DNA from: Candidatus Avedoeria danica
GTDB lineage: Bacteria; Chloroflexota; Anaerolineae; Epilineales; Epilineaceae
NCBI GenBank assembly: GCA_016703025.1
Contig: JADJCV010000003.1
Location: forward strand, 175,635 to 239,634
Length of the DNA stretch: 64,000 nucleotides
Direction: 5' to 3'
Shown here: positions 17,643 to 52,505 of the stretch, piece after piece
Layout: each line of letters starts with the position of its first letter
Numbering within the stretch: position 1 is the first letter of the stretch
The notes under the pieces: generated by a model
Databases searched by the model: none
Told to the model about the DNA's origin: nothing
Seen by the model: only the letters and a program-made list of their open reading frames with translations
Position numbers and translations under genes: made by a program

Positions 17643-17693
17643 TGCCGACGATGAGCGCTGGGGCGCGGCCCCAGCATGGCCAGGAGGCAAGCG

Positions 17694-25844: not shown

Positions 25845-25900
25845 CAAACTCGACACCCCCGGCAGTATCTCTGCAGCTCACCTGGCGTTAACCTGCACAG
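25845..25900 (+). promoter_or_regulatory. Conserved three-box upstream module, copy 1 (CCAAAC-N14-GTATCT-N15-CGTTAACCTGCACA)
   Basis: The same boxes at identical spacing occur upstream of paralogs B and C. Ends about 120 nt before the ATG at 26020. Confidence 0.45.
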
Positions 25901-26019
25901 TCGCAAAGGGCCGAACCGTCGTGGCCGTCCCTGCGTGACCCCTGCGCCGCAGTCCTTTCTGCACGCCGCAGGCGTCTGTGCTCACCGTAAGCGTCGAAAT
26001 CAAGAGAGGGTTGCGACGG

Positions 26020-29000
26020 ATGTTGAAACACTGGAATGCGCGAATCATCATGGCGTTGGCGGCGCTCGGCCTCGTGGCCGTGGCCAACGGCTCAGTGGTC
26101 CATGGCAAGCCGGCCGAGATGCCTTCACAGGAAGTCACCGGCGGGCGGTTGGGGTTCATCCCCAACGGTGGGCAGTGGGACGAGGCTGTCCAGTTCCACA
26201 CCGAGAGTGGCGGTGTGGACGTCTGGCTGCAGCGGGACGGCTACACCTATGCCGTCGCGAACGACCACACCGGTGAGGCCCCGATCCTCACGGGCAATGA
26301 GCCCGACGTGGTTGACCCGCAGGGCGTCTACAGCGCCGACGTCCACGCGGTGCGCGTGACGTTCGAGGGCGCATCCGAGGCCACGGCGCTCCTGCCCACC
26401 GGCCAGCAGGCGGGCAAGCACAACTGGCTCGTCGGTCCGGAAGAGGACTGGGTCACGGACCTGAACGCCTACGGTGGCGTGAGCTACCGTGACGTCTGGC
26501 CGGGCATCGAGGCCTCGGTCCGCACCGGCGGCGGCCCGATGGCCGTTGGTCAGCAGGCGCCCGGTGGCCAGTCGGTCGTGAAGTGGAGCTACCACCTCGC
26601 GCCGAACGCCGACCCGTCGCAGATCCAGCTTCGCTTCGAGGGCGCGGACAGCGTCGCGATCGAGAACGGGTTGCTGAAGATCGGTACCCAGCTCGGTGAC
26701 TTCACCGAGACCGGGCTGATCGCGTTCCAGGACGTCGCGGGCGAGCGCCGCGCGGTGAGCGCGGAGTTCACGCTGGTCGGCGACACCGTCGGCTTCGCGG
26801 TCGGCGCCTACAACCCGGCGCTGCCGCTCGTCATCGACCCGGTCGTCCTCTTCTCGCGCCGCTTCGGCGGCAGCTCGACCGACCTGTCGTCCGGCATTTC
26901 GCGCGACGGGGCCGGCAACCTCTACACCTCCGGCTGGACGGCGTCGACGAACTACCCGACGCAGAGCGGCTTCCAGAACGCGGCCAACGTTACCTATGAC
27001 TGCTTCGTCACGAAGACGAACGCCGACAACTCGGCGCTCACGTACTCGACGTACATCGGCAGCAACAGCACGGACGCGGACTGCCGCAGCGTGCTCAACC
27101 CGAACAACGAAGTGATCCTCTCGGCGATCACGTTCAGCACGCTCTGGGTCGGCGCGCCGTTCCTCATCGGCACGCCCGGCGGGACGCCCGATGTCGGCAT
27201 GGTCATCCTGAACGCGGCCGGCAACGGCCTCGTCGCCTCGGCCCGCGTCGGCGCGACCAGCAGCGACTACGCGCACGGTCTCGCCCGCATGCCCAACGGC
27301 AACATCGTCGTCACCGGCCAGACGTTCTCGACGACCGGCTGGCCGGCGCTCGGCGGCTTCCGCCCGGCCCTCATCGGCTCGCCGGACGGCTTCGCGATCG
27401 TCCTGAACAGCGGCATCTCCGCTGCGACGGCGTTCTCGTACTTCGGCGGCAACAGCTCGGACTACGGCGGCGGCGTCGCGGTCGACGCCAGCAACAACAT
27501 CTACGCGATGTACGGCACGCTTTCGACGGATCCGACGCTCATCGGTGGCGGCGGCGGCAACTACGACGTCGGCGTGGCCAAGTTCAACTCCACGTTGACG
27601 GCGCAGACCTACAACTCGCGCTTCGGCGGTAACTCGACCGAGCCGTTCAGCCCGTGCGACACGTGTGCGCCGGGCACGCTCTACCAGACGGACAATAGCC
27701 TGATCGCCGTCGACGCCGCGGGCCGCGTGTACGTCACCGGCGCGACGGCATCGACGGACTACCCGACGACGGCCGGCTCGTTCCAGCCGGCGGCCTCGGC
27801 GGTGTACGACGGCTTCGTGACGATCGTCAACGCCGCGGGTAACGGGCTTGCGGCGTCGTCGTACCTCGGCGGCAACAGCACGGACACCGGCAAAGCGATT
27901 GGGATCGACGGCGGCGGCCGGGTCTACGTGGCCGGCCACACCGCCGCCACCAACTTCCCGACGACGCCGGGCGAGGTCCAGGGGACGAACGCCGGCAACT
28001 ACGATTACTTCCGGACGATCTTCCTGCCTGACCTCAGCGACATCGTTTGCAGCACCTACTGGGGCGGCAACAGCACGGACCATGTCGCGGACATGGAGAT
28101 CGTCGGCAACTACAAGACGATCCTGAGCGGCACGACCGCCAGCGCGAACTTCCCGCAGATCCCGAGCGGCTCGACCGTCTTCGGCGGCGGAGGCGGTTAC
28201 GACATCGGCAACGCCTACCTGAACTGCGGCGGCGCCAACCTCGTCATCACGAACTCGGCGCTGACGAACCGCGGCTCGGTCCGCACGTCCGTCAGCCCGA
28301 TCGCGTTCCCGGACGGCAACGGCGCCGAGCCGATGGCGGTCCAGCCGCCGGCGGCCGAGGCCGACGCGGCGGCGCCGGTGGCGGCGGACGGGGCCGTCCT
28401 GCCGTACGCGGTGCAGCAGCTGCCGGAGAACGAGGAGTGCCTCGCGCCCGGCAACTTCGTCCAGATCACGATCGAGATCACGAACACCGGCCTCTCGGAT
28501 CAGCTGGGCGCCGGGCCGGAGTACGTCGCATCCTGGGACGGCGGCCTGCTGGCCGGCCAGCCCGGCTCGTGCGCGTTCTTCGTCGGCGCCGGCAACTGCC
28601 AGGTCAGCGCCAGCAGCGTCAGCGTCGACGCCGACATCCCGTCGGGCGGCGTGATCCAGTTCGCCTGGATGGTCCGCATCGCCGGCGGCCTGGCTGCCGG
28701 GACGGTCATCCCGGTCAACCAGACGCTGTTCTACGACACGGACGATGACGGGATCAACGAGAGCTTCCCGCAGGACGCGCTGGGCTTCACGCTCAACTGC
28801 TTCCCGACGGTCTGGCCGAACAACCAGCTCGGCAAGCAGGTCCACCTCCCGATCCTGAACTTCCAGGGCCAGGACGACGTCTGCGAGAGCTGGATCGAGG
28901 TTCAGAACATCGGTTGCCGGATCGCCAAGGCGGCCCTGGTCACGTGGGGCGAGCCGGGCTTCTGCCCGCCGCAGGCCGCCGGCCCGCTGAAGGTGGAGTG

Positions 29001-31141
29001 CACCGGCCTCCTGAAGCCCGGCAGCACGTGGAACCTCTACGGCGCGCAGGTTCCGACCGGCTCGAAGAGCGGTATCCTCTTCAAGCTGTCGGCCCGCCAG
29101 CTGTCCGAGGACGGCATCGACGTCATCCCCGAGGACGACATCACGGGCGACTACGTCTGCGAAGTCCTCTTCTTCAACGTCGTCGGTGACGCGGACGACT
29201 ATCGCCGCTTCAAGAAGGCCTACAACGAGGGCCTCGTGTTCGACGGCATCGACATGGTCCGCGCTTCCGGCGACGGCCTGCTCGCGGTCGACGTGCACCG
29301 CAGCTGCCCCGGCGACGCGACCCCGGGCGTGGACGTGACGAGCAAGTACAACGGCCTGGCCGGTACGCACCTCGGCACGTACGACGAGGTCTACGGCGGC
29401 TACAGCTACTACGTGCCGCTCGTGTACGCCAGCGCCGCTGGCTTCAACACGATCATCTACATCCAGAACGGCGGCCTCATGTGCTCGTCGCTGGAGATCT
29501 GGTTCAAGGCCCGCGACGACTGCCTGCGCGCGACGATCTGCGACATCGCGACGCTGGCGCCGGGCGAGACCTACCAGCTGGACGCGAACGACTGCGTCGG
29601 CCCGGACTTCCAGGGCAGCGCGTGGATCCGCTCGACCCAGGTGATGGGCATCGCGGTGGACATCATCGGCGGCGACGTCCTGATGACCTACGTCGGCGAG
29701 CCGGGTGAGATCAACTACACGTTCGACCCGAACAAGTCGACGACGCGCGACGGGAACCAGGTGGCGTTCGCGCCGCTGACGTACAGCGAGTACCAGGGTT
29801 GGGACGCCGGCATCCAGGTGCAGAACCTGAGCGCGGTGTTCGCGGCGAAGGTGAAGATCTACTTCCTGGACCGCGGCGGCGACATCATCACGACGCTGGT
29901 GGACTGGGTCTGCCCGCGCGGGAGCCAGACGTTCTTCCTGCCGGTCGTGTTCGACCTGCCGGGGAACTGGGTCGGGAGCGCGCGCGCGGAGAGCCAGGAG
30001 TGGATCTCGCCGGGCAGCCCGAACGTGCTCGCGCCGAACATCGTGGGCATCGTGACGCTGATCAAGTACACGGACGTGGCGCGGACCTCGAAGAGCGAGG
30101 CGATCGCCTACAACATGCTGCCCGAGCACAAGATCTACGACTGGCAGCTCGGCTTCGGCGGCGGCGGGTTGGATAGCGGCATCGGGCTCATCGCGATCCC
30201 GTCGCTGCTGAAGGACCTGGAGAACAGCGGCCTGACGTCGGAGATCGCGATCGCGAACGTCGTACCGAAGCCCGGCTTCACCGACCTCGTGATCTACTTC
30301 TACGACCAGAACGGCCTGCTGGACTACGTGTGCCAGAAGCTGAACGAGAAGCAGGTCGAGTACATCGACCTCCAGACGTGGGGCTACATCAGCGACGGCT
30401 TCAAGGGCTCGGCGATCATCAGCGCCTGGTTCTGGGAGCACGACGTGTTCGACGACACGGGCTTCTTCCTGCGCAACCTGGTCGGCCTCGGCGCCGTGTC
30501 GGTGGAGCGCAAGGGGGACGCACTTGGGCGAGGACGTACCGGGCGACGAGTCGGCGGGTGACCGCGGCATCCCGTTCGCCCAGACGTTCGACGAAGAGGG
30601 CGAGCCGCTGTTCGAGTTCTGCTTCATGGGCCCGCTGCCGCTGTGCCCGGGCTTCGTGGACAACCGCCCGGCTCCGGGTGACTGCGTCGCGGCCGGCTTC
30701 GGTGCGGCGACGATCGAGATCCCGGGCGGCGCGCCGTTCTCGGCGTACCCGCGCGGTGATGTCGGTGGCGGCAACTGCACGAACGCGGGCGTGAACGACC
30801 GCAACTGGGGCACGCACGAGTTCTCCGTCTGCCCCGGCACGAACGACATGACGGTCACGATCAACACGGTCACGCTGGCGCCGTTCAACGGTGCGAGCTG
30901 CGGCCTTGCGGGTCAGGACCTGTTGCTCGCGCTGTTCATCGGACCGGACGGGTTCAACCCGAACGCCGAGTGCGAGAACTTCATCGAGAACAACAAGCCG
31001 GACTTCCAGGGTCTCGGCGCCGGCTCGTCGTACACGTTCCAGATCCCGAATGCACCAGGGGCTTACACGCTCATGATGCAGAACAACTGCGACACGACCC
31101 CGCCGCAGTCGATCGGTAGCGTGGACTTCGAGATCAACTAG
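26020..31141 (+). pseudogene. Giant secreted paralog A, interrupted by a one-base insertion in a G run (30513-30517)
   Basis: Track ORFs 25978..30561 and 30524..31141 together encode one protein that is colinear with paralog B. The likely start is ATG 26020 (MLKHWNARIIMALAALGLVAVANG, with GAGAGGG 9 nt upstream). Copy A reads caaGGGGGacg where copies B and C read caaGGGGacg. Domain order: signal peptide, DUF7948-like N-domain (FIPNGGQWDE), SBBP-type propeller repeats, DUF11-like domain, four uncharacterised modules, and a PPC-like C-terminal domain. Confidence 0.8.
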
Positions 31142-31311
31142 CCGATCGGCCGGTTCGGCCGGCGGACCGGGCAGCGCCCGGTCTGACTGAAGAACCGCCA
31201 CCGCGACGCTCGTCGACAGCCGCCCCCGGGGATTCCCCGGGGGCGGCTGCTGTTTGCCCGGCATTCCGACGGCGAACCACTGGGGCTCGGCGCTCGAATC
31301 ACCGTGCTTCG
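28231..31311 (+). repeat. Near-identical block of about 3.08 kb, copy 1 (partner at 33827..36905)
   Basis: Base-by-base reading at an offset of 5596, then 5595, then 5594. Differences seen: isolated substitutions (for example 28259, about 30172, about 30769, about 31189), one 64-bp divergent patch, one G indel and one T indel. Confidence 0.9.
31217..31256 (+). terminator. Intrinsic terminator of paralog A (15-bp stem CAGCCGCCCCCGGGG, 3-nt loop, then CTGTTTG)
   Basis: Perfect hairpin 76 nt after the TAG at 31139-31141, followed by a T-rich tail. Confidence 0.7.
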
Positions 31312-31446
31312 GCTGCCGTTCAGACCCGACTGCGGGCCGTCGCGTGCGGGGCGGCCGTCCGTCGGCATGTGCTGCAAATCTGCTTATCGTTCTGCACGCG
31401 GTGCGCGGATGCGGCGCAGAATCGGCTGGATCAATGGCATTGCTGC

Positions 31447-31502
31447 CGAAAATGACAGGCGCTCCCGTATCTCCGGCTCACATCTCGCGTTAATCCGCAC
31501 AT
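31447..31502 (+). promoter_or_regulatory. Conserved three-box upstream module, copy 2 (CGAAAA-N14-GTATCT-N15-CGTTAATCCGCACA)
   Basis: Same architecture as 25845..25900 and 36975..37030. Confidence 0.45.
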
Positions 31503-31624
31503 GTCACCACGGGTCGGCCGTTCGGCCGTCCCAGTGTGGCCCTTGCGCCGCAGCCCGTAGCTGCACGCCGCAGGGCGTCCTCACTCACCGTATGCGTCGA
31601 GATCAAGAGAGGGTTGCGACGGAA

Positions 31625-34600
31625 ATGTTGAAACACTGGAGTGCGCGAATCATCATCGCGCTGGCAGCGGTCGGCTTGCTGACCGCCGCCACGGGATCCG
31701 CAGTGCGAGGCCAATCGGCGGCCAAGTCGCCGCTTCCCTCGGCTGAGCCGGCGATCGGGTTCATCCCGAACGGCGGCCAGTGGGACGAGGCGGCCGCGTA
31801 TCACGCGGCACCGAGTGGGGTCGACGTCTGGTTGAAGACGAACGGCTTCGTCTATGCGCCGGGCGACACCGGCCTGACCCCGGGCGTCGAACTGCCGCCC
31901 GAGGCGTCCGAGACGCCCGCCGACGAGGTTCCGACCACGATCGCGCGCCACGTCGTCACGGCTGAGTTCGAGGGCGCTTCCGAAGGTGTGACGCTCGATC
32001 CGGCCGAGGGGCTGCCGGGCGAGTACAACTGGCTGGTCGGCCCGGAGTCCGACTGGGTGACGGGCTTGCACGCCTATCGCTCGGTGACCTACCGTGGCCT
32101 CTGGTCCGGCATCGACGCGACGGTACGCACCGGCAAGGCGCCGGCCGCGGTCAACGGCGCCCTGGCGGGCGACGCGATCGTCAAGTGGACCTACACGGTG
32201 GCGCCGGGCGGCGACGCTTCCCAGATCAAGCTGCGCTACACCGGCCAGGACAGCCTGGCGATCGAGAACGGCGTGCTCAAGATCGGGACGCAGCTCGGCG
32301 ACCTCGCCGAGACCGGCCTGATCGCATGGCAGGTCCGCAACGGCGAGCGACTTCCGGTCGACGCCGCGTTCACGATCGACGGCAACGTCGTCGGCTTCGC
32401 CGTCGGGGCATACGATCCGACGCTTGCGCTCGTCATCGACCCGGTGATCATCTTCTCGCGCCGCTTCGGCGGCAGCTCGACCGACTCGGCGTCGAACATG
32501 TCGGTCGACGGCTCGGGCAGCATCTACAACTCGGGCATGACGGCGTCGACGAACTTCCCGACGCAGAACGCCTACCAGGCCGCGGCCAACGTGACGTACG
32601 ACTGCTTCGTCACGAAGCTCAACGCCGACAGCTCGGCGCTGACGTACTCCACCTACCTCGGCGGCAGCAGCACCGATTACGAGTGCCGCCACACGCTGAC
32701 GCCGGCAGGCGAGGTCGTCGTCACGGCGACCGCGGCCGGGACCTGGGTCGGCGTGCCGATCCTCATCGGCACGCCGAGCGGCTTCGACGCCAACCTGGCG
32801 ATCCTCGGCGCGGCCGGCAACACGCTGACCGCTTCGGCTGAGGTCGGCGGCACGAGCACGGATTACGCCCACGGCATCACCCGGATGTCGAACGGCAACA
32901 TCGTCGTCGTCGGGACGACGAGTTCGAGCGCCGGTTGGCCGGCCCTCGGCGGCGCGGACATCTCGCTGACCGGCCAAGAGGCATACGCGGTCGTCCTCAA
33001 CCCGACGATCAGCGGCGCCGTGGGCTTCTCCTATGTCGGCGGCAACAGCAGCGACTGGGGCAACGCCGTCGCGGTCGACGCGAGCAACAACGTCTACGTT
33101 CACTACTCGACGCTCTCGACCGACATCGCGATGATCGCGGGCGTCGGCGGCAACTACGACCTCGGCGTGGCCAAGCTCAACGCGGGCCTGACGGCCTTCG
33201 CGTACCAGGGCCGCGTCGGCGGCTCGAGCACGGATCCGACGGCCGGCGGGAGCGACACCTCGGTTCCGGGCTCGCTCTACCAGATCGCCAACAACGGGAT
33301 CCTGGTGGACGGCAGCGGCCAGGCCTGGACGACCGGCATGACGGCGTCGACCGACTGGCCGACGACCGCGGGCGCATACAAGACGACGAACGGCGGCAAC
33401 TACGACGCGTTCGTCACGGGCATCAACGCCGCCGGCACCGGGCTGGTCCGCTCGACGTACATCGGCGGCACCAGCACCGACACCGGCCGCGGGCTCGGCA
33501 TCGACGGCACCGGCCGGATCTACATGGTCGGCTCGGCGGCCTCGTCGAACTACCCGACGACGCCCGGCGAGGTCCAGACGACGTTCGGCGGCAGCTACGA
33601 CTGGGTCCGAACGATCTTCCAGCCTGACCTGAGCGGTCTGGTTTGCAGCACCTACCTCGGTGGCAGCAGCACGGACTACGGTGCCGACATCGAGGTCACG
33701 GGCAACTACAAGGCGATCCTCAACGGCTCGACCGCCAGCGCGAACTTCCCGCAGGTCCCGGACGGCTCGACCGTCTTCGGCGGCGGCGGCGGCTACGACA
33801 TCGCGAACGCGCACATCACGTGCGGTGGCGCCAACCTCGTCATCACGAACTCGGCCCTGACGAACCGCGGCTCGGTCCGCACGTCCGTCAGCCCGATCGC
33901 GTTCCCGGACGGCAACGGCGCCGAGCCGATGGCGGTCCAGCCGCCGGCGGCCGAGGCCGACGCGGCGGCGCCGGTGGCGGCGGACGGGGCCGTGCTGCCG
34001 TACGCGGTGCAGCAGCTGCCGGAGAACGAGGAGTGCCTCGCGCCCGGCAACTTCGTCCAGATCACGATCGAGATCACGAACACCGGCCTCTCGGATCAGC
34101 TGGGCGCCGGGCCGGAGTACGTCGCATCCTGGGACGGCGGCCTGCTGGCCGGCCAGCCCGGCTCGTGCGCGTTCTTCGTCGGCGCCGGCAACTGCCAGGT
34201 CAGCGCCAGCAGCGTCAGCGTCGACGCCGACATCCCGTCGGGCGGCGTGATCCAGTTCGCCTGGATGGTCCGCATCGCCGGCGGCTTGGCCTCCGGGACG
34301 GTCATTCCGGTCAACCAGACGCTCTTCTACGACACCGATGAGGATGGGGTCAACGAGAGCTTCCCGCAGGACGCGCTGGGCTTCACGCTCAACTGCTTCC
34401 CGACGGTCTGGCCGAACAACCAGCTCGGCAAGCAGGTCCACCTCCCGATCCTGAACTTCCAGGGCCAGGACGACGTCTGCGAGAGCTGGATCGAGGTTCA
34501 GAACATCGGTTGCCGGATCGCCAAGGCGGCCCTGGTCACGTGGGGCGAGCCGGGCTTCTGCCCGCCGCAGGCCGCCGGCCCGCTGAAGGTGGAGTGCACC

Positions 34601-36937
34601 GGCCTCCTGAAGCCCGGCAGCACGTGGAACCTCTACGGCGCGCAGGTTCCGACCGGCTCGAAGAGCGGTATCCTCTTCAAGCTGTCGGCCCGCCAGCTGT
34701 CCGAGGACGGCATCGACGTCATCCCCGAGGACGACATCACGGGCGACTACGTCTGCGAAGTCCTCTTCTTCAACGTCGTCGGTGACGCGGACGACTATCG
34801 CCGCTTCAAGAAGGCCTACAACGAGGGCCTCGTGTTCGACGGCATCGACATGGTCCGCGCTTCCGGCGACGGCCTGCTCGCGGTCGACGTGCACCGCAGC
34901 TGCCCCGGCGACGCGACCCCGGGCGTGGACGTGACGAGCAAGTACAACGGCCTGGCCGGTACGCACCTCGGCACGTACGACGAGGTCTACGGCGGCTACA
35001 GCTACTACGTGCCGCTCGTGTACGCCAGCGCCGCTGGCTTCAACACGATCATCTACATCCAGAACGGCGGCCTCATGTGCTCGTCGCTGGAGATCTGGTT
35101 CAAGGCCCGCGACGACTGCCTGCGCGCGACGATCTGCGACATCGCGACGCTGGCGCCGGGCGAGACCTACCAGCTGGACGCGAACGACTGCGTCGGCCCG
35201 GACTTCCAGGGCAGCGCGTGGATCCGCTCGACCCAGGTGATGGGCATCGCGGTGGACATCATCGGCGGCGACGTCCTGATGACCTACGTCGGCGAGCCGG
35301 GTGAGATCAACTACACGTTCGACCCGAACAAGTCGACGACGCGCGACGGGAACCAGGTGGCGTTCGCGCCGCTGACGTACAGCGAGTACCAGGGTTGGGA
35401 CGCCGGCATCCAGGTGCAGAACCTGAGCGCGGTGTTCGCGGCGAAGGTGAAGATCTACTTCCTGGACCGCGGCGGCGACATCATCACGACGCTGGTGGAC
35501 TGGGTCTGCCCGCGCGGGAGCCAGACGTTCTTCCTGCCGGTCGTGTTCGACCTGCCGGGGAACTGGGTCGGGAGCGCGCGCGCGGAGAGCCAGGAGTGGA
35601 TCTCGCCGGGCAGCCCGAACGTGCTCGCGCCGAACATCGTGGGCATCGTGACGCTGATCAAGTACACGGACGTGGCGCGGACCTCGAAGAGCGAGGCGAT
35701 CGCCTACAACATGCTGCCCGAGCACAAGATCTACGACTGGCAGCTCGGCTTCGGCGGCGGCGGGTTGGACAGCGGCATCGGGCTCATCGCGATCCCGTCG
35801 CTGCTGAAGGACCTGGAGAACAGCGGCCTGACGTCGGAGATCGCGATCGCGAACGTCGTACCGAAGCCCGGCTTCACCGACCTCGTGATCTACTTCTACG
35901 ACCAGAACGGCCTGCTGGACTACGTGTGCCAGAAGCTGAACGAGAAGCAGGTCGAGTACATCGACCTCCAGACGTGGGGCTACATCAGCGACGGCTTCAA
36001 GGGCTCGGCGATCATCAGCGCCTGGTTCTGGGAGCACGACGTGTTCGACGACACGGGCTTCTTCCTGCGCAACCTGGTCGGCCTCGGCGCCGTGTCGGTG
36101 GAGCGCAAGGGGACGCACTTGGGCGAGGACGTACCGGGCGACGAGTCGGCGGGTGACCGCGGCATCCCGTTCGCCCAGACGTTCGACGAAGAGGGCGAGC
36201 CGCTGTTCGAGTTCTGCTTCATGGGCCCGCTGCCGCTGTGCCCGGGCTTCGTGGACAACCGCCCGGCTCCGGGTGACTGCGTCGCGGCCGGCTTCGGTGC
36301 GGCGACGATCGAGATCCCGGGCGGCGCGCCGTTCTCGGCGTACCCGCGCGGTGATGTCGGCGGCGGCAACTGCACGAACGCGGGCGTGAACGACCGCAAC
36401 TGGGGCACGCACGAGTTCTCCGTCTGCCCCGGCACGAACGACATGACGGTCACGATCAACACGGTCACGCTGGCGCCGTTCAACGGTGCGAGCTGCGGCC
36501 TTGCGGGTCAGGACCTGTTGCTCGCGCTGTTCATCGGACCGGACGGGTTCAACCCGAACGCCGAGTGCGAGAACTTCATCGAGAACAACAAGCCGGACTT
36601 CCAGGGTCTCGGCGCCGGCTCGTCGTACACGTTCCAGATCCCGAATGCACCAGGGGCTTACACGCTCATGATGCAGAACAACTGCGACACGACCCCGCCG
36701 CAGTCGATCGGTAGCGTGGACTTCGAGATCAACAGCCGATCGGCCGGTTCGGCCGGCGGACCGGGCAGCGCCCGGTCTGACCGAAGAACCGCCACCGCGA
36801 CGCTCGTCGACAGCCGCCCCCGGGGATTCCCCGGGGGCGGCTGCTGTTTGCCCGGCATTCCGACGGCGAACCACTGGGGCTCGGCGCTCGAATCACCGTG
36901 CTTCGAACCTGCATCGCCATGTGCACGAGATACCTAG
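31625..36937 (+). CDS. Giant secreted paralog B (SBBP propeller, DUF11-like, four uncharacterised modules, PPC-like domain), with a 60-aa read-through tail
   Basis: The likely start is ATG 31625 (MLKHWSARIIIALAAVGLLTAATG). Track ORF 31304..36937 simply extends upstream with no stop. The C-terminal core is nearly identical to paralog A. The TAG used by copy A is destroyed here: aacTAGccg in A reads aacAGCcg in B at 36731-36737. Translation therefore continues through the terminator hairpin to 36937. Confidence 0.85.
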   Translation: MLKHWSARIIIALAAVGLLTAATGSAVRGQSAAKSPLPSAEPAIGFIPNGGQWDEAAAYHAAPSGVDVWLKTNGFVYAPGDTGLTPGVELPPEASETPADEVPTTIARHVVTAEFEGASEGVTLDPAEGLPGEYNWLVGPESDWVTGLHAYRSVTYRGLWSGIDATVRTGKAPAAVNGALAGDAIVKWTYTVAPGGDASQIKLRYTGQDSLAIENGVLKIGTQLGDLAETGLIAWQVRNGERLPVDAAFTIDGNVVGFAVGAYDPTLALVIDPVIIFSRRFGGSSTDSASNMSVDGSGSIYNSGMTASTNFPTQNAYQAAANVTYDCFVTKLNADSSALTYSTYLGGSSTDYECRHTLTPAGEVVVTATAAGTWVGVPILIGTPSGFDANLAILGAAGNTLTASAEVGGTSTDYAHGITRMSNGNIVVVGTTSSSAGWPALGGADISLTGQEAYAVVLNPTISGAVGFSYVGGNSSDWGNAVAVDASNNVYVHYSTLSTDIAMIAGVGGNYDLGVAKLNAGLTAFAYQGRVGGSSTDPTAGGSDTSVPGSLYQIANNGILVDGSGQAWTTGMTASTDWPTTAGAYKTTNGGNYDAFVTGINAAGTGLVRSTYIGGTSTDTGRGLGIDGTGRIYMVGSAASSNYPTTPGEVQTTFGGSYDWVRTIFQPDLSGLVCSTYLGGSSTDYGADIEVTGNYKAILNGSTASANFPQVPDGSTVFGGGGGYDIANAHITCGGANLVITNSALTNRGSVRTSVSPIAFPDGNGAEPMAVQPPAAEADAAAPVAADGAVLPYAVQQLPENEECLAPGNFVQITIEITNTGLSDQLGAGPEYVASWDGGLLAGQPGSCAFFVGAGNCQVSASSVSVDADIPSGGVIQFAWMVRIAGGLASGTVIPVNQTLFYDTDEDGVNESFPQDALGFTLNCFPTVWPNNQLGKQVHLPILNFQGQDDVCESWIEVQNIGCRIAKAALVTWGEPGFCPPQAAGPLKVECTGLLKPGSTWNLYGAQVPTGSKSGILFKLSARQLSEDGIDVIPEDDITGDYVCEVLFFNVVGDADDYRRFKKAYNEGLVFDGIDMVRASGDGLLAVDVHRSCPGDATPGVDVTSKYNGLAGTHLGTYDEVYGGYSYYVPLVYASAAGFNTIIYIQNGGLMCSSLEIWFKARDDCLRATICDIATLAPGETYQLDANDCVGPDFQGSAWIRSTQVMGIAVDIIGGDVLMTYVGEPGEINYTFDPNKSTTRDGNQVAFAPLTYSEYQGWDAGIQVQNLSAVFAAKVKIYFLDRGGDIITTLVDWVCPRGSQTFFLPVVFDLPGNWVGSARAESQEWISPGSPNVLAPNIVGIVTLIKYTDVARTSKSEAIAYNMLPEHKIYDWQLGFGGGGLDSGIGLIAIPSLLKDLENSGLTSEIAIANVVPKPGFTDLVIYFYDQNGLLDYVCQKLNEKQVEYIDLQTWGYISDGFKGSAIISAWFWEHDVFDDTGFFLRNLVGLGAVSVERKGTHLGEDVPGDESAGDRGIPFAQTFDEEGEPLFEFCFMGPLPLCPGFVDNRPAPGDCVAAGFGAATIEIPGGAPFSAYPRGDVGGGNCTNAGVNDRNWGTHEFSVCPGTNDMTVTINTVTLAPFNGASCGLAGQDLLLALFIGPDGFNPNAECENFIENNKPDFQGLGAGSSYTFQIPNAPGAYTLMMQNNCDTTPPQSIGSVDFEINSRSAGSAGGPGSARSDRRTATATLVDSRPRGFPGGGCCLPGIPTANHWGSALESPCFEPASPCARDT
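33827..36905 (+). repeat. Near-identical block of about 3.08 kb, copy 2 (partner at 28231..31311)
   Basis: See copy 1. Confidence 0.9.
36811..36850 (+). terminator. Terminator hairpin of paralog B, identical to 31217..31256, now lying inside the extended ORF
   Basis: Same 15-bp stem, loop and CTGTTTG tail. Confidence 0.65.
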
Positions 36938-36974
36938 ATGAAGTGCAGGGCCGTCCATTTCATGCCATAACCGA

Positions 36975-37030
36975 CCAAACCGCCGCGCCTCCCCGTATCT
37001 GACGCTCCAATCTCACGTTAATCTGCACAT
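36975..37030 (+). promoter_or_regulatory. Conserved three-box upstream module, copy 3 (CCAAAC-N14-GTATCT-N15-CGTTAATCTGCACA)
   Basis: The flanking sequence is otherwise diverged from copies 1 and 2, yet the boxes and spacings are kept. Confidence 0.45.
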
Positions 37031-37138
37031 CTGACGGTAACAGCGACTTGCTGGCGCCGCCGTTCAGCCTGTAGGTGCGGCCGCGCGCCTGGGGCAGCAG
37101 CTGCAGATCTTCGTAGACCAAAGGGAGGTCGCGACACC

Positions 37139-40100
37139 ATGTTGTGTCGAGTTCGTACGCGAAGTTGGATGGCGATTCTGGCGTCGGCCCTCGTGGCCGC
37201 CGCAGCGACCACGGGCGCCGCTCGGGCCCAGTCCGAGGACGGCGCAGCACCGGCAGGGTGCGCTGCCGGTGCCTGGGACGGCAACCTCGACTGTTCACCC
37301 CACCAGACCAAGATGGACGATCCGGTCGTCGACCAGGTCGAATCCATCGAGCCTGAGTTCGAGGCCGTGCGCAACACCTCGAGCCACGAGATGTGCCGCC
37401 TGCTCGCCGATGATCAGGCCCGCGAGGCGGCCGGCTGCTTCGAAGCCGCCAAGGCCGTCGACGTGCCCGCACCTCCTGGCCCGGGCAACACGGCGCTCAA
37501 TGGTCTGCCGATGTCCTTCGTCGCCAACCGCGGCCAGCGGCCGGCGGAAGTGCGGTTCGAGGTGAAGCGCAGCGGCCATAGCCTGTTCTTCACACCCGAC
37601 GCCGTGGTGTTCGCCGCCGAGGCCGCCGACGGCTCGGCGAAGACGGACGTCCGCATGACGTTCGACGGCGCGGCCGACGCGCCTCGTGTCAGTGGCATCG
37701 ACGCCCTTCCGGGCGTCCAGAGCTACTTCAGCGGCGACAAGTCCGTCACGGGCATACCGACGTTCGGCGGTGTCCGCTACGGCGCCCTCTATCCGGGCAT
37801 CGACCTGACGTTCAGCGGCCAGGCGGGCGCGCTGAAGCGCGAGTTCGTCGTGGCGCCGGGCGCCGACCCGTCGGCCATCCGGATGCGCTACGCCGGCGTG
37901 ACGGACATCCGCGTCACGGACGCCGGTGACCTCGCGCTCGAGACCGCGCTCTCGACGCTGACCGAGCAGAAGCCGTTCGTCTATCAGGAAGTCGCCGGTC
38001 GGCGCGTCGAGGTCGAGTCGGCCTACGCCGTCGACGGCCGCGTCGTCACGTTCGAGCTCGGCGCGTACGATTCGGCGCTCCCGCTCGTGATCGACCCGAT
38101 CTTCCAGTTCAGCACCGTCATCGGGACGACGGCGAGCGACATCGTCAACGCCCAGGTCCTCGACGCCGCCGGCAACGTCTACATCGTCGGCCTGACGAAC
38201 CTCGCGACGTTCCCGACCGGCGGCACGTCGACGACGTTCGGCACGAACGGTGGGCAGGAGGCGTTTGCCGCCAAGCTCACGCCCGATCTGAGCACGCTGC
38301 TCTACTCGGTGGTCCTGGCCAGCTCGAGCACGGACTCGGCGATCGCTGCGTCCATCCAGCCGGGCACGACGCAGCTCGACATCTTCGGCACGACCTTGAC
38401 GAGCAACTTCCCGGTTTGCACCGGCTTCGGCCTGCCCTTCGCCACGTGCACCGGCGCCGCGTTCGACACGACGTTCAACGGCGGCGCGGACTACTTCGTC
38501 GCCCGGCTGAACGCGGCCGGGACGGGGCTGCTCGGCAGCACGTACCTCGGCGGCACGTCCACCGAGCAGGGCGTCGGCGGCATCGACACGTATGCCAACG
38601 GCGACGTCTGGGTCGTCGGCAGCTCCAGCTCGACGAACTATCCGTTCCTGAACCCGTTCGCCGGGACGCAGACGTCCCTCACCGCCGGCAGCACCGACCC
38701 GGTGATCACCGGCCTGCGCGCGGACCACACCCTCACGTTCGCCAGCGGCTACCTCGGCGGCAACACGACGGACCAGGCGTTCGCCGTGACGATCGACCAG
38801 TCCGGCTTGGACTTCCATGTTGCCGGCGTGACGTTCTCGTCGACGTTCCCGATCTGCACCGGCGCCGGGACGATGCTGAACGGCAACGTGAACAACTCGT
38901 GCACCGTCGCCGGCTTCGACACGTCGTTCAACTCCAGTTCGGACAGCTACGTGATGCGGATCGCGAACACGCTGCGCGTCGTGGCCAGCACGTACGTCGG
39001 CGGGACGAGCACGGACCAGTTCTTCGCCGTCGACCGCATCGGGGACGACACGGTCGCGTTCGGCAACACGCTGAGCAACCCCTACCCGACCACGCTCGGC
39101 GCGTTCGACACGACGTTCAACACGGGCGCCGACTACGCGTTGACGCGCTTGAACGGCGATCTGTCGTCGCTGGTCTACAGCACCTACATCGGCGGGTCCG
39201 GCACCGAGGGCGGCCGCGGCATCGACCTCGATGCCGCCAACCAGGCCCACGTCACCGGCTTCAGCTCGTCGGCGAACTTCCCGGTGCTCCTCGCGCCGGA
39301 CGGGACGCTGACGACGGCCAACGACGCCACCGTGACGAAGGTCACGGCGGACGGCTCGGCGCTGCTCTACAGCACGTACCTTGGCGCGGCCGGCAACGAG
39401 AACGGCCTCGCGCTCGACGTGTCGGCCAACGGCAACACCGCCTACGTCGCCGGCCTGACGTCCGCGGCGACCTTCCCGACGACGCCCGGCGCGTTCGACA
39501 CGACGCACAACGGCAGCAACGACGGCTTCGTGACGGCCGTGTCGCTTGCGCCGATCATGATCGGCGTGACCACATTCGAGGACCTGACCAAGTCCGTCCC
39601 GGGCGAGGATTGCCTCGGCTCGGGCGACCACGTCCTTGTCACGGTCAGCATGACGAACGCGGGTGACTTGCCGGCCACGAGCGGCACCTACACCGCTGCG
39701 TTCCCGCAGGGACTCGTCGGCGACACCGGCTCGTGCAGCGATCCCGGCTGTGCCGTCACCCCCGGCGGCGTGTCGGCGAACTTCACGTTCGCCCCGCCCC
39801 TTGCCCCGGGCTCCACGTTCGTGTTCACATACCGCGTCTACATTTCCGGTGGGACCTTCGGTCGCCGAATCCTCACGGTCGTGGCCAGCGGCTCGTTCGG
39901 CGCGAACGGCATCACGTCCTCGCAGGATCTGAGCTACGAGCTCGCGATGACGTGCCCGCCGCAGGTCGACCCGAACAGCCAGCTCGGCAAGCAGGTCCAC
40001 CTCCCGATCCTGAACTTCCAGGGCCAGGACGACGTCTGCGAGAGCTGGATCGAGGTCCAGAACCTGGGCTGCCGGATCGCCAAGGCGGCGCTGGTCACGT

Positions 40101-42307
40101 GGGGCGAGCCGGGCTTCTGCCCGCCGCAGGCCGCCGGCCCGCTGAAGGTGGAGTGCACCGGTCTCATCAAGCCCGGCAGCACGTGGAACCTCTACGGCGC
40201 GCAGGTCCCGACCGGTTCGAAGAGCGGTATCCTCTTCAAGCTGTCGGCCCGCCAGCTGTCCGAGGACGGCATCGACGTCATCCCCGAGGACGACATCACG
40301 GGCGACTACGTCTGCGAGGTCCTCTTCTTCAACGTCGTCGGTGACGCGGACGACTATCGCCGCTTCAAGAAGGCCTACAACGAGGGCCTCGTGTTCGACG
40401 GCATCGACATGGTCCGCGCTTCCGGCGACGGCCTGCTGGCGGTCGACGTGCACCGCAGCTGCCCCGGCGACGCGACCCCGGGCGTGGACGTGACGAGCAA
40501 GTACAACGGCCTGGCCGGTACGCACCTCGGCACCTACGACGAGGTCTACGGCGGGTACAGCTACTACGTGCCGCTCGTGTACGCCAGCGCCGCCGGCTTC
40601 AACACGATCATCTACATCCAGAACGGCGGCCTCATGTGCTCGTCGCTGGAGATCTGGTTCAAGGCCCGCGACGACTGCCTGCGCGCGACGATCTGCGACA
40701 TCGCGACGCTGGCGCCGGGCGAGACCTACCAGCTGGACGCGAACGACTGCGTGGGCCCGGACTTCCAGGGCAGCGCGTGGATCCGCTCGACGCAGGTGAT
40801 GGGGATCGCGGTGGACATCATCGGCGGCGACGTCCTGATGACGTACGTCGGCGAGCCGGGCGAGATCAACTACACGTTCGATCCGGACCGCTCGACCACC
40901 AAGGACGGCAACCAGGTGGGGTTCGCGCCCCTGACGTACAGCGAGTACCAGGGTTGGGACGCCGGCATCCAGGTGCAGAACCTGAGCGCGGTGTTCGCCG
41001 CCAAGGTGAAGATCTACTTCCTCGACCGCTCGGGCGACATCGTCACGACGCTGGTGGACTGGGTCTGCCCGCGCGGGAGCCAGACGTTCTTCCTGCCGGT
41101 CGTGTATGACCTGCCGGGGAACTGGGTCGGGAGCGCGCGCGCGGAGAGCCAGGAGTGGATCACGCCGGGTGGTCCGAACATCCTCGCGCCGAACATCGTG
41201 GGCATCGTGACGCTGATCAAGTACACGGACGTGGCGCGGACCTCGAAGACCGAGGCGATCGCCTACAACATGCTGCCCGAGCATAAGATCTATGACTGGC
41301 AGATCGGCTCGATCGGCGGCGGGCTGGACAGCGGCGTCGGCCTGATCGCCATCCCGTCCGTTCTGCGCGACCTCGAGAACAGCGGCCTCACGTCGGAGAT
41401 CGCGATCGCGAACGTCGTGCCGAAGCCCGGCTTCACCGACCTCGTGATCTACTTCTACGACCAGAACGGCCTGCTGGACTACATCTGCCAGAAGCTGAAC
41501 GAGAAGCAGGTCGAGTACATCGACCTCCAGACGTGGGGCTACATCAACGACGGCTTCAAGGGCTCGGCCATCATCAGCGCCTGGTTCTGGGAGCACGACG
41601 TCTTCGACGACGAGGGCGTGTTCCTGCGCAACCTCGTCGGCCTCGGCGCCGTCTCGATCGAGCGCAAGGGGACGCACCTGGGCGAGGACGTACCGGGCGA
41701 CGAGTCGGCGGGTGACCGCGGCATCCCGTTCGCCCAGACGTACGACGAAGAGGGCGAGCCGGTCTTCGAGTTCTGCTTCATGGGGCCGGCGCCGCTCTGC
41801 CCGGGCTTCCCGGACAGGCGTCCGCAGCCCGGCGACGGTCCGGCGTGCATCTCGGCGCCGCTCGGCGACACCTTCGAGGCCACGAGCGGTCAGGGCAGCG
41901 GCTATGCCGACTGGCTGACCTACCAGGCGAACACGCGCGTCTTCCGCGACGGTGTGGCCAGCACGTGCAACCCGAAGGCGTGCCCCGGCACGAGCGGCGG
42001 CGGCGGCAACTTTGACCTCTACTACTTCAACAACTGCGACCGCGGCGAGCACTGCTTCACCGTGACGGTGAACACGGGTACGTGCACGACGAACATCCAC
42101 GGCGTCGCGTTCGCCGGCGAGGTCCCCGACGGCAGCGCGTTCGCCTGCCAGCTCGGCGACGCGGTCTACGTCGGCGATCTCGGTTCGAGCCTGTCCCAGC
42201 CGTTCTCGTTCACGATCCCGGCTGGAACGGCGCGGTGGACGCTGATGTTCCACAACAACTTCGGCGCCGCCACGTGTGACTACAGCTTCGTGATCACGGA
42301 GAACTAG
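37139..42307 (+). CDS. Giant secreted paralog C (1722 aa), with the same architecture but diverged N-terminal half and a different PPC-like C-terminal domain
   Basis: AGGGAGG lies 10 nt upstream of the ATG. The signal peptide is MLCRVRTRSWMAILASALVAAAATTGAARA. Has a DUF7948-like region (FVANRGQRPAEVRF...), SBBP repeats and a DUF11-like domain. The core from NSQLGKQVHLPILNFQGQDD to EFCFMGP is almost identical to A and B. Confidence 0.9.
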   Translation: MLCRVRTRSWMAILASALVAAAATTGAARAQSEDGAAPAGCAAGAWDGNLDCSPHQTKMDDPVVDQVESIEPEFEAVRNTSSHEMCRLLADDQAREAAGCFEAAKAVDVPAPPGPGNTALNGLPMSFVANRGQRPAEVRFEVKRSGHSLFFTPDAVVFAAEAADGSAKTDVRMTFDGAADAPRVSGIDALPGVQSYFSGDKSVTGIPTFGGVRYGALYPGIDLTFSGQAGALKREFVVAPGADPSAIRMRYAGVTDIRVTDAGDLALETALSTLTEQKPFVYQEVAGRRVEVESAYAVDGRVVTFELGAYDSALPLVIDPIFQFSTVIGTTASDIVNAQVLDAAGNVYIVGLTNLATFPTGGTSTTFGTNGGQEAFAAKLTPDLSTLLYSVVLASSSTDSAIAASIQPGTTQLDIFGTTLTSNFPVCTGFGLPFATCTGAAFDTTFNGGADYFVARLNAAGTGLLGSTYLGGTSTEQGVGGIDTYANGDVWVVGSSSSTNYPFLNPFAGTQTSLTAGSTDPVITGLRADHTLTFASGYLGGNTTDQAFAVTIDQSGLDFHVAGVTFSSTFPICTGAGTMLNGNVNNSCTVAGFDTSFNSSSDSYVMRIANTLRVVASTYVGGTSTDQFFAVDRIGDDTVAFGNTLSNPYPTTLGAFDTTFNTGADYALTRLNGDLSSLVYSTYIGGSGTEGGRGIDLDAANQAHVTGFSSSANFPVLLAPDGTLTTANDATVTKVTADGSALLYSTYLGAAGNENGLALDVSANGNTAYVAGLTSAATFPTTPGAFDTTHNGSNDGFVTAVSLAPIMIGVTTFEDLTKSVPGEDCLGSGDHVLVTVSMTNAGDLPATSGTYTAAFPQGLVGDTGSCSDPGCAVTPGGVSANFTFAPPLAPGSTFVFTYRVYISGGTFGRRILTVVASGSFGANGITSSQDLSYELAMTCPPQVDPNSQLGKQVHLPILNFQGQDDVCESWIEVQNLGCRIAKAALVTWGEPGFCPPQAAGPLKVECTGLIKPGSTWNLYGAQVPTGSKSGILFKLSARQLSEDGIDVIPEDDITGDYVCEVLFFNVVGDADDYRRFKKAYNEGLVFDGIDMVRASGDGLLAVDVHRSCPGDATPGVDVTSKYNGLAGTHLGTYDEVYGGYSYYVPLVYASAAGFNTIIYIQNGGLMCSSLEIWFKARDDCLRATICDIATLAPGETYQLDANDCVGPDFQGSAWIRSTQVMGIAVDIIGGDVLMTYVGEPGEINYTFDPDRSTTKDGNQVGFAPLTYSEYQGWDAGIQVQNLSAVFAAKVKIYFLDRSGDIVTTLVDWVCPRGSQTFFLPVVYDLPGNWVGSARAESQEWITPGGPNILAPNIVGIVTLIKYTDVARTSKTEAIAYNMLPEHKIYDWQIGSIGGGLDSGVGLIAIPSVLRDLENSGLTSEIAIANVVPKPGFTDLVIYFYDQNGLLDYICQKLNEKQVEYIDLQTWGYINDGFKGSAIISAWFWEHDVFDDEGVFLRNLVGLGAVSIERKGTHLGEDVPGDESAGDRGIPFAQTYDEEGEPVFEFCFMGPAPLCPGFPDRRPQPGDGPACISAPLGDTFEATSGQGSGYADWLTYQANTRVFRDGVASTCNPKACPGTSGGGGNFDLYYFNNCDRGEHCFTVTVNTGTCTTNIHGVAFAGEVPDGSAFACQLGDAVYVGDLGSSLSQPFSFTIPAGTARWTLMFHNNFGAATCDYSFVITEN

Positions 42308-42330
42308 TTAGACCACGGGGAAACGATCCG

Positions 42331-42384
42331 CCGGCGCTGGAGGCGCATGCCGCGCAGCCAAGCGGCATGCGCCTCCAGCGCCGG
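42331..42384 (+). terminator. Perfect 23-bp-stem hairpin after paralog C
   Basis: CCGGCGCTGGAGGCGCATGCCGC, an 8-nt loop, then GCGGCATGCGCCTCCAGCGCCGG. Lies 24 nt after the stop. There is no U tract. Confidence 0.7.
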
Positions 42385-42605
42385 TGGACAACCTCCGACT
42401 CCTCCGCATGGTCGCCGGCACGGTCCAAGGCAATCGTACTCTCTACGTTGCACGGGATCGTGCCGACGGCGCCGAGCCAACCACGACGGGCTCGGCCGGC
42501 CCCTGCTGCTTCGCGCGGCAGGGGCCGCTGCATGTCCGGCGACTGTCGGTTGAAGGGCCGATGGGCCTATCCTAGGCGACACCCCCGCCGCGCCCCAGTG
42601 GGCGC

Positions 42606-43457
42606 ATGCTCGCCTGGACAATGCCGATGGATCGCCTCCCGAGCGCCGAACCCTTCCAGCATCCCGACGCCTACGACGGCGTTGCCGACGCGTACGACCG
42701 CTTCTGGGGCGACGCGCTGGCGCCTGCCATGCTCGGCGCGCTCGACCGCCTGCTGGCGTCCGTCCCTCCGACAGACGGCCGCGGCCGACTCCTCGACCTG
42801 TGCTGCGGCACCGGCCAGCTGGCCGCCGGCCTGACGGACCGCGGTTGGACCGTTGTCGGCGTCGACGGCGCGGAGGCGATGCTCGAGCGAGCCCGTCGCC
42901 GCGCGCCGACCACCACGTTCGTCCGGTCGGACATGCGGGCGTTTGGCATCGGCGGGGTCCTGCCGGGCGAGAGCGGCTCGGAGCCGCCGTTCGATGTCGT
43001 CGTCTGCGCGTTCGACAGCTTGAACCACTTGCCGGACGCCGCCGCGCTGGAGGAGGTACTCGGCCGCGTATTCGGCGCGCTCCGCCCCGGCGGCCGGTTC
43101 GTGTTCGACGTCAACCTGCGCGCAGGCTTCGAGGCGCGCTTCGAGGGCTCGCTCGGCTTCGCGGACACCGATCTGGTGTGCGTCGTCAACGCCGGCTTCG
43201 ACGGCTTGTACGGGCGCTACGATATCGCCGTGCTGCGGCCCGAAGCGCCGGCAGCGCTCGAAGCGCCAGCAGTGCCCGAAACGGCCTGGCGTCGGACGGA
43301 CACGACCCTCGTGCAGCGTTGCTTCGAGCTGTCCGAGATCCTCGCCGCGCTCGCCAACTCCGGCTTTCCGGACCCTGTCGTGCTGGATGCTGAAGACGAT
43401 CTGGGGATGGACGGGCATATCGGGCGGGCGGTGTTCGTCGTCGACCGACCGGGGTAA
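42606..43457 (+). CDS. Class I SAM-dependent methyltransferase
   Basis: LLDLCCGTGQLAAGL (motif I), VVGVDGAEAMLERAR, FDVVVCAFDSLNHL, ALRPGGRFVFDVN. Confidence 0.85.
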   Translation: MLAWTMPMDRLPSAEPFQHPDAYDGVADAYDRFWGDALAPAMLGALDRLLASVPPTDGRGRLLDLCCGTGQLAAGLTDRGWTVVGVDGAEAMLERARRRAPTTTFVRSDMRAFGIGGVLPGESGSEPPFDVVVCAFDSLNHLPDAAALEEVLGRVFGALRPGGRFVFDVNLRAGFEARFEGSLGFADTDLVCVVNAGFDGLYGRYDIAVLRPEAPAALEAPAVPETAWRRTDTTLVQRCFELSEILAALANSGFPDPVVLDAEDDLGMDGHIGRAVFVVDRPG

Positions 43458-43538
43458 GGCGTCGCCGCGGGGCCCGTGCGTCGGCCGCTCGGGCGACGGG
43501 CATTGGGCTTCAGCCGTTGCGCGCTGCCTCCCAGCACG

Positions 43539-47857
<4,319 letters not shown>

Positions 47858-47861
<4 letters not shown>

Positions 47862-48634: not shown

Positions 48635-48657
48635 TTCCGGCCACCTTTGACCACCGA

Positions 48658-48686
48658 CTGACGGCGTGCGAACAGTCCTCGTTCGG
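48658..48686 (-). promoter_or_regulatory. ECF-type promoter candidate CCGAAC-N17-CGTCAG upstream of the sigma gene
   Basis: The minus strand reads TGTCCGAACgaggactgttcgcacgcCGTCAG. The -10 ends about 24 nt before the GTG at 48634. The -35 box is part of a 15-bp tandem repeat. Confidence 0.4.
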
Positions 48687-48710
48687 ACAGTCCTCGTTCG
48701 GACAGTGTCC
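48672..48710. repeat. 15-bp tandem repeat (ACAGTCCTCGTTCGG), 2 full copies plus a degenerate third
   Basis: Read directly: 48672-48686, 48687-48701, and a partial copy at 48702-48710. Confidence 0.9.
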
Positions 48711-48729
48711 GGGGTGCGAGCCGCTCCGT

Positions 48730-48771
48730 GCGCATCGTTCCCGTCATCTTGCGCATCGTTCCCGTCATCTT
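48730..48771. repeat. 21-bp perfect tandem repeat (GCGCATCGTTCCCGTCATCTT), 2 copies
   Basis: Copies at 48730-48750 and 48751-48771. The second copy contains the stop codon of the 48765..52382 gene. Confidence 0.9.
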
Positions 48772-52382: not shown

Positions 52383-52458
52383 GCGATGGCCTCTACAGCG
52401 GCGCACGGCACCGGGGGCGGTGCCGTGCGTTGGGTGTGTTGGGGGGTAAGACAGCGGG

Positions 52459-52487: not shown

Positions 52488-52505
52488 TGACAGGACTGCG
52501 CGCCA

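Follow-up and report, generated by a model that had tools for sequence, protein, structure and literature searches.

Near-identical cores between diverged flanks in three tandem secreted-protein genes of Candidatus Avedoeria danica point to recurrent gene conversion

How can three neighbouring genes be almost identical in one part and barely related in the rest? This question is raised by a locus of Candidatus Avedoeria danica (contig JADJCV010000003.1), of which we analyzed a stretch of 64,000 nucleotides (positions 175,635 to 239,634 of the contig; hereafter the window, to which all coordinates refer). As a preliminary description of this DNA had reported, three genes of common plan, here called A, B and C, follow one another head-to-tail in this order on one strand, and each starts with a signal peptide. 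The explanation that best accounts for the whole, and that we consider probable, is that A, B and C encode large secreted multidomain proteins of an Ardenticatenales-type member of the Chloroflexota, that they are transcribed separately and that their mosaic arose by recurrent gene conversion among paralogous copies of one domain, the core.

With realistic start codons, gene A spans 26020–31141, gene B 31625–36937 and gene C 37139–42307 (all +). The GC content lies between 0.66 and 0.77 in the window, and a GC content at third codon positions (GC3) of 0.92–0.95 identified the plus-strand frames of A, B and C as coding; by this measure the plus-strand open reading frames (ORFs) 25978–30561, 31304–36937 and 37139–42307 are genuine. 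Antisense ORFs of 1,600–1,800 codons mirror the genes at 26125–30888, 31490–36874 and 37295–42253 (−). They are composition artefacts, because their GC content of 0.92–0.95 at the first codon position reflects the extreme GC3 of the sense strand. Each gene would specify a signal peptide, a DUF7948 domain, a beta-propeller region, a small sandwich domain (the pre-core segment), the core (some 610 residues) and, after it, a jelly-roll tail of roughly 165 residues. In A, the DUF7948-like domain is located at about 26152–26844 and is followed by the propeller region, the pre-core sandwich, core and tail. A is colinear with B, which has the same architecture. Gene C is intact, carries its DUF7948 domain at about 37517–38101 and shares the core; its N-terminal half, pre-core segment and tail are deeply diverged. 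Its protein is database entry P0121.

Two of the genes contain single-base lesions. The reading frame of A is broken by one extra G at 30513 (five G instead of the four in B and C), and its annotated product (P0259) is truncated. B has lost the T of an ancestral TAG stop codon at 36733, which leads to a read-through of 68 codons; TAG is retained in A and, at the matching position, in the orthologous sequence of SJ541, an independent metagenome assembly of a related organism. Together with a similar lesion in a fourth paralogue, P0002, these indels all lie within near-identical repeats and have the look of residual assembly errors; alternatively, they may represent real pseudogenisation. Slipped-strand phase variation at the G run of A was discarded, as runs of four or five G would be too short for such switching.

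Comparison of the window with itself resolved the mosaic. BLASTN aligned A 26411–31311 with B 32016–36905 at 90% identity, and placed the cores at 28816–30662 in A, 34412–36257 in B and 39971–41816 in C (all +), with edges within about 25 bp of those first proposed by eye. The homologue search and the AlphaFold model described below are based on the core of B. C has only this 1.85-kb core in common with A and B. It is 94.9–95.0% identical to the cores of A and B, with 87–99% identity along its length and abrupt edges, and identity in codon-aligned windows outside the core drops to 46–65%. The identity profile thus bears out the proposed contrast between core and flanks (95% versus 46–65% for C). 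The picture of a homogenised core with diverged ends holds for C. It does not hold for A and B, which are near-identical from 28261 to 31311 including pre-core segment, tail and terminator. This tract (A 28261–31311, B 33857–36905; +) measures 3.05 kb, is about 99.8% identical and runs from the pre-core domain through core and tail into non-coding DNA, where it includes the terminator palindrome and reaches about 170 bp past the stop codon. Upstream of it, up to about 28260, the 5′ halves of A and B are 53–89% identical (about 70%). Only 18 positions differ within the tract; two of them are single-base indels, and 11 are clustered in an unconverted island of 64 bp (A 28690–28753, B 34286–34349; +).

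The core of C is itself composed of two layers. Compared with A, it shows 19 differences in 872 bp (2.2%) before position 40843 and 76 differences in 974 bp (7.8%) after it, in agreement with the initial impression that the first part of the core is almost the same in all three genes. A maximum-chi-square analysis placed the breakpoint at 40843 (permutation p<0.0005). The last 170 or so residues, which had been thought to differ completely between A/B and C, turned out to be remote homologues (25% identity, E 0.002), as did the pre-core segments (28% identity, E 1e-6). This makes the whole C-terminal part of the architecture ancestral, with overwriting confined to the core.

Synonymous (dS) and nonsynonymous (dN) divergence, calculated by the Nei-Gojobori method, separated these layers clearly. 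Between A and B, dS was 0.54 and dN 0.34 in the N-terminal half (dN/dS about 0.6), and dS fell to 0.07 in the pre-core segment, 0.002 in the core and 0.017 in the tail. Between A/B and C, dS amounted to 0.62–0.64 in the N-terminal half, 0.75–0.77 in the pre-core segment and 0.80 in the tail. The core value was 0.13, composed of 0.082 before 40843 and 0.184 after it. In the core, the proportion of synonymous differences between species (pS) saturates at about 0.3–0.45 in this GC3-biased genome. Because of this plateau the dS values of the flanks are effectively saturated. A core dS of 0.002–0.18 next to flanks of 0.54–0.80, with discrete edges at 28261, 31311, 39971 and 41816, is the signature of concerted evolution.

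The C orthologue of SJ541, 94.9% identical in nucleotide sequence, provides the time scale. Its dS relative to C was 0.114 in the N-terminal half, 0.066 and 0.083 in the two parts of the core and 0.101 in the tail, so that core and flanks were only about 30% apart. The dN/dS ratio between these orthologues was lowest in the core (0.07–0.13); in the N-terminal module of C it was 0.17, indicating purifying selection there. Across the family of core domains, neither half of the core is better conserved than the other (63% versus 64%). Since synonymous sites of the core evolve only mildly more slowly than those of the flanks and both halves are under equal constraint, the low, two-step dS between the paralogues reflects recombination of different ages. 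The gene conversion proposed in the preliminary description is thereby supported, with dS of 0.002–0.18 in the core and at least 0.54–0.8 in the flanks. The term 'ongoing' is fair in the sense that the dS of 0.002 in the A/B tract lies far below the 0.07–0.11 of the SJ541 split; A and B differ by 0.2% there, compared with an orthologue divergence of 2–5% for C.

At least three events of non-reciprocal homologous recombination, differing in age, would account for this pattern. The oldest visible exchange would have involved the whole core before the SJ541 split (dS about 0.18). A later one, roughly contemporaneous with that split, would have replaced the initial 870 bp or so of the core (dS about 0.08). 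Very recently, an exchange of 3.05 kb between A and B would have taken in everything from the pre-core domain to the terminator (dS 0.002). Constraint at the protein level presumably holds the cores of old paralogues above the identity needed to start recombination, and heteroduplex extension would stop once identity in the diverged flanks falls to about 50%, leaving sharp edges. Every conversion would raise identity further and create a self-reinforcing sub-family, which would explain why only some sub-families are homogenised.

The exchange is not confined to the array. A fourth paralogue, P0002 ('MAG: hypothetical protein IPG72_03450 [Ardenticatenales bacterium]'; MAG, metagenome-assembled genome), was overlooked in the preliminary description, as was the large protein family of which the core is the hallmark. 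P0002 is encoded outside the window; it and P0121 are each reported on a contig of 432,491 bp. Its core is 94–95% identical to those of A, B and C (264 of 266 residues in the first part). Its N-terminus, a jelly-roll-like domain and a small sandwich, is unrelated to theirs, and a frameshift affects residues 848–887 approximately. As the non-tandem P0002 shares the homogenised core, exchange must have been ectopic and beyond unequal crossing-over within the array.

The SJ541 assembly contains two contigs of the corresponding region. One (L002) is collinear with window positions 36682–41595, comprising the end of a B-type tail, the spacer and gene C at 94.9% identity, and the other (L058) is collinear with 40779–51827. 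The junction of B tail, spacer and gene C is thus kept in an independent assembly, whose contigs end within the repeats. The distal core on L002 is of the P0002 type (257 of 262 residues), whereas that on L058 is of the C type (266 of 271 residues) and is followed by the C tail; where the end of L002 and the start of L058 should overlap in the core of C, they are only 91.7% identical over 817 bp. L002, in which a distal core of this type is joined to the N-terminal half of C like that of P0002, arose either by natural recombination or as a chimera of short-read assembly. The presence of both distal core types indicates that SJ541 has the same set of close core variants.

Several points weigh against recurrent conversion as outlined here. 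Orthologues of A and B were not recovered from SJ541, so that a closer relation among paralogues than among orthologues is shown only indirectly; in the first half of the core, the paralogues C and A (97.9%) and the orthologues (98.3%) are about equally similar. A test for conversion between C and A since the two species diverged did not reach significance (24 versus 13 lineage-specific sites, p=0.10). Consensus polishing across repeats could account for part of the near-perfect identity of A and B, and it is in just these repeats that the 1-bp indels of A, B and P0002 hint at errors at the base level.

The last two points lead to the alternative that the array, or the near-identity of its repeats, is an artefact of assembly or polishing. 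The source is a MAG, and single-base indels inside the repeats of three of the four paralogues (30513, 36733 and P0002) are typical of unpolished repeats. We nevertheless judge an artefact unlikely. Each unit has its own N-terminal half and spacer, and C has its own tail, so the genes are not copies of a single unit. The A/B tract contains discrete, real differences and a divergent island, and the independent SJ541 assembly shows the junction of B tail and C as well as separate C-type and P0002-type cores.

A dedicated system of recombinational variation, in which the core serves as a swap point reassorting N- and C-terminal modules and thereby varying the cell surface, is slightly less likely still. 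In its favour, the same core is joined to many N- and C-terminal modules across the family, and L002 combines the N-terminal half of C with a P0002-type distal core, be it recombinant or chimera. In contrast, silent cassettes are missing, all genes appear expression-competent from their sequences, and the neighbours scanned with Pfam included no recombinase or mobile-element gene. Moreover, the module combination of C is conserved between species, its N-terminal module is under purifying selection, and most members of the family evolve as stable orthologues. The cassette-like family with potential for variation that had been proposed for this locus was therefore not substantiated: there are no promoterless partial cassettes, the part converted is the constant one, and the N-terminal dN/dS is 0.17. 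A scan of metagenomes for strain variants of the N-termini of A and B yielded only relatives of 25–30% identity.

Recent tandem duplication followed by fast N-terminal diversification without any conversion would fit the tandem arrangement, the identical 3′ halves of A and B and the N-terminal dN/dS of about 0.6 between them. It is very improbable, as the A–B dS of 0.54 in the N-terminal half contrasts with 0.002 in the 3′ half and positive selection does not raise dS. In addition, the flanks of C are at 25–30% amino-acid identity, the N-terminal half of C is under purifying selection between species (dN/dS 0.17) and the core also occurs in the non-tandem P0002. Least probable of all is that stronger purifying selection on the core kept old paralogues alike without recombination: the core does retain 50–85% amino-acid identity between genomes and the lowest orthologue dN/dS (0.07–0.13), but this explanation is refuted by the contrast between a core dS of 0.002–0.18 and saturated flanks of 0.5–0.8, while orthologue dS differs by just 30% or so between core and flanks, other within-genome paralogues are only 52–85% identical in the core, the A/B tract runs into non-coding DNA and the equally constrained core halves are 2.2-fold apart in dS.

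Recurrent gene conversion thus acted on a domain whose distribution extends far beyond this locus. The core is an undescribed domain family, widespread in bacteria of the Anaerolineae class. At least 362 homologues were found with 55–95% identity over 93–100% of the 628-residue query, and a profile search retrieved 466 clusters (50% identity) at E<1e-30. Named homologues come from MAGs of Chloroflexota (Ardenticatenales, Anaerolineae and Caldilineae), with one exception labelled Acidobacteria. Another core-family gene, 59% identical, lies on a contig binned as 'uncultured Gammaproteobacteria' (CAVZRD010000004.1, L036); because the named members are otherwise almost exclusively Chloroflexota, the contig was probably binned in error. 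Species-representative genomes, when scanned, yielded 113 core copies in about 18 MAGs, four of which carry 7 to about 10 each. The core aligns end-to-end with the family including its invariant residues, and conservation across the family ranges from 50 to 99%. The core that had been called Cys-rich has 15 cysteines among its 625 residues; across the family, 11 of these cysteines are invariant.

Within most genomes the paralogous cores share 52–85% identity and have closer orthologues elsewhere, which makes the 94–100% found here exceptional. Strong homogenisation of the core was also seen in Ca. Epilinea brevis and two other MAGs. In Ca. Epilinea brevis, two copies on separate contigs (L021 5257–8735 and L023 12505–15996) are 97.6% identical over 3.5 kb. 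Its other copies reach 87–92%, with similarity confined to the core, and represent the same kind of sub-family homogenisation.

Members of the family range from a signal peptide plus core alone (about 620–680 residues) to giants in which the core comes last. It is usually C-terminal, following DUF11 arrays (14–21 domains), CHRD, NHL/SGL propellers or dockerin, and in 18 of 61 sampled members a proprotein-convertase P-domain follows the core. The giants P0294 (4802 residues), P0288 (4504 residues), P0304 and P0306 carry 14–21 DUF11 domains with the core at the end. Cluster look-up of the giant relatives pointed to no cultured host; those that bear a name are MAG-derived. Three complete cores in series and nothing else recognised by Pfam make up P0241 (1990 residues) and also P0242–P0244. 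Fusion of DUF7948 to the core was seen solely in A, B and C, in SJ541 and in P0246 from the Anaerolineae MAG OFTM155. From its DUF7948 domain through to the core, P0246 aligns colinearly with the products of all three genes at 46–47% identity, which indicates that this fusion is old and that the cores pre-existed and were converted, not newly fused. Across 75 loci with core genes no conserved neighbour was found; real neighbours recur in at most six loci, and large neighbour clusters were discarded as antisense artefacts of the core itself.

The core, to which no function could be assigned at first, remained without a relative in Pfam, NCBIfam or the PDB (whole proteins; fragments against Pfam and NCBIfam at E≤10; sequence and profile searches of the PDB), and no well-characterised family or fold matched it. 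An AlphaFold2 model based on an alignment of 61 sequences was of high confidence (predicted local distance difference test, pLDDT, 88.4; predicted template modelling score, pTM, 0.90). The predicted structure is compact, nearly all beta and disulfide-rich, and is built from about four beta-sandwich domains with a single helical insert; hhalign detected a weak relationship between domains 2 and 3 (probability 77%). Foldseek searches of the PDB and BFVD found no match to the whole fold (template modelling score, TM, about 0.1), and the sole match was a subdomain of 116 residues resembling TM1070 (1nc7).

Of the domain labels given previously, DUF7948 (PF25778) was recovered in B (161.6 bits, residues 47–275) and C (189.3 bits), far above the cutoff of 27. 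SBBP repeats (PF06739) were significant in B only (54 bits, cutoff 20.5); in C they gave merely E 0.57 on a fragment, and homologues of C carry PF06739. The DUF11 and PPC labels had no Pfam match. DUF11 (PF01345) was missing from B and C (E≤0.01) and likewise from the pre-core fragments (E≤10), and the tails of A, B and C matched no Pfam or NCBIfam family at E≤10, neither PPC (PF04151) and P_proprotein (PF01483) nor any other. The pre-core segment of C gave a sub-threshold match to NEW3/NPCBM_assoc (19 bits, cutoff 24.4), and relatives in the family carry DUF11 or DUF7507 in this place. The tail of A and B was modelled with moderate confidence (pLDDT 69) as a generic jelly-roll, whose best Foldseek matches (TM≤0.44) were assorted jelly-rolls including C-terminal domains of proteases.

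We tentatively regard the core as a structural module outside the cell that is stabilised by disulfides and sits at either the base or the tip of variable passenger domains. Such a role is suggested by the signal peptides, the 11 invariant cysteines, the C-terminal place in adhesin-like giants, the proteins with tandem cores and the lack of similarity to a catalytic family or of an operon partner. A rigid, disulfide-bonded core may serve as stalk, anchor or self-assembly unit bearing interchangeable N-terminal binding modules. Against a structural or anchoring role, which we only infer, it must be held that no fold match and no conserved neighbour gene were found. A bolder proposal, to which we give little credence, is that the core is a self-assembling or envelope-anchoring module that ends giant surface fibres of filamentous Anaerolineae-class bacteria, including DUF11 bead-strings; core DNA would then be a genome-wide recombination hotspot that swaps passengers between loci and perhaps strains, and L002 would be a real recombinant.

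Each gene of the array appears to be equipped for its own expression. The 14-nt motif CGTTAAYCYGCACA is present at 25886–25899, 31488–31501 and 37016–37029 (+), approximately 120 bp 5′ of each start codon, and at no other site in the window. It sits in a conserved element of about 45 nt and, among 75 related loci, recurs solely upstream of the SJ541 orthologue of C (L002 302–315). The element could be a promoter or operator common to the three genes, or a leader. Self-comparison revealed a GC-rich palindrome of 33 bp, a likely terminator, after A (31217–31249) and an identical copy after B (36811–36843), whereas a distinct palindrome of 62 bp follows C (42327–42388). The palindrome of the A/B type is conserved in SJ541. 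All three genes have their own upstream motif, ribosome-binding region, start codon, signal peptide and terminator palindrome, and because of the motif and palindrome of each they look like complete, separate transcription units. Promoter-scan matches at 26023 and 31628 were discarded since they lie inside signal-peptide codons, as were terminator-scan matches within coding sequence. Rfam and tRNA scans of the array found nothing.

The array is embedded in a cluster of about 45 kb of genes for large secreted proteins (window 8717–56454). It includes an S8 subtilase with two CBM96 domains (8717–11380, −), a double-VWA protein (12392–15949, −), an Invasin_D3/Big_1/DUF11 protein (22041–25685, +), an LVIVD protein (43539–47861, −) and an S8 subtilase with PKD (52585–56454, −). 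Two further proteins of 1,300–1,400 residues had no Pfam match (17676–21878, +; 48765–52775, −). Other neighbours are a methyltransferase and the housekeeping genes nadA/nadB. The Pfam scan of neighbours revealed neither a recombinase nor a mobile-element gene.

Concerted evolution of surface-protein paralogues is well known, and the mechanism itself adds little. The value of the locus lies in three layers of gene conversion that are cleanly dated and end where homology is lost, in a phylum that has been little studied, and it illustrates why such repeats break short-read assemblies and keep indel errors in long-read ones. It further identifies the core as a C-terminal module shared by many of the largest proteins secreted by bacteria of the Anaerolineae class, which are abundant in activated sludge and sediments. 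Knowing whether the core serves in anchoring, oligomerisation or ligand binding would help to explain the surface construction of these filamentous bacteria.

A literature search on DUF7948 and on surface proteins of Ardenticatenales returned nothing relevant. The N-terminal halves of A, B and C fit a widespread DUF7948/SBBP propeller plan (1878 matches from many phyla at 30–40% identity). C continues into the core: among the best 120 matches to full-length C, only C itself exceeds the N-terminal half. GhlA of Litorilinea aerophila, a DUF11 bead-string protein, has been reported to form grappling-hook-like appendages (PMC13319060). Several giants of the core family (4,400–4,800 residues, 14–21 DUF11 domains, core at the end) resemble GhlA and belong to the same bacterial class; A, B and C differ from it in having no DUF11 array detectable by Pfam. 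A link of the core family to DUF11 fibres such as GhlA is offered as a lead only.

Gene conversion among surface paralogues with conserved segments also connects the array with the antigenic variation loci pilE/pilS of Neisseria, vlsE of Borrelia and msp2 of Anaplasma. In these systems a variable segment at one expression site is replaced from promoterless partial donors. In contrast, the units described here are complete and the tracts cover the conserved core. The ligA/ligB genes of Leptospira encode large surface proteins of Ig-like repeats that are essentially identical over about 630 residues and diverged in the remainder, which parallels the identical 3′ halves of A and B. The shared part of the Lig proteins is N-terminal and made of Big_2 repeats, whereas here it is a C-terminal, non-repetitive domain of 610 residues plus tail. 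In Helicobacter pylori, the adhesin paralogues babA/babB/babC and sabA/sabB keep near-identical and diverged segments through RecA-dependent gene conversion. A, B and C resemble them as surface paralogues that mix both kinds of segment. The bab genes occupy dispersed loci, undergo phase variation through repeats and use conversion to alter the expressed adhesin; in the array of Candidatus Avedoeria danica, the genes lie in tandem with one additional ectopic copy, and it is the constant domain that is converted.

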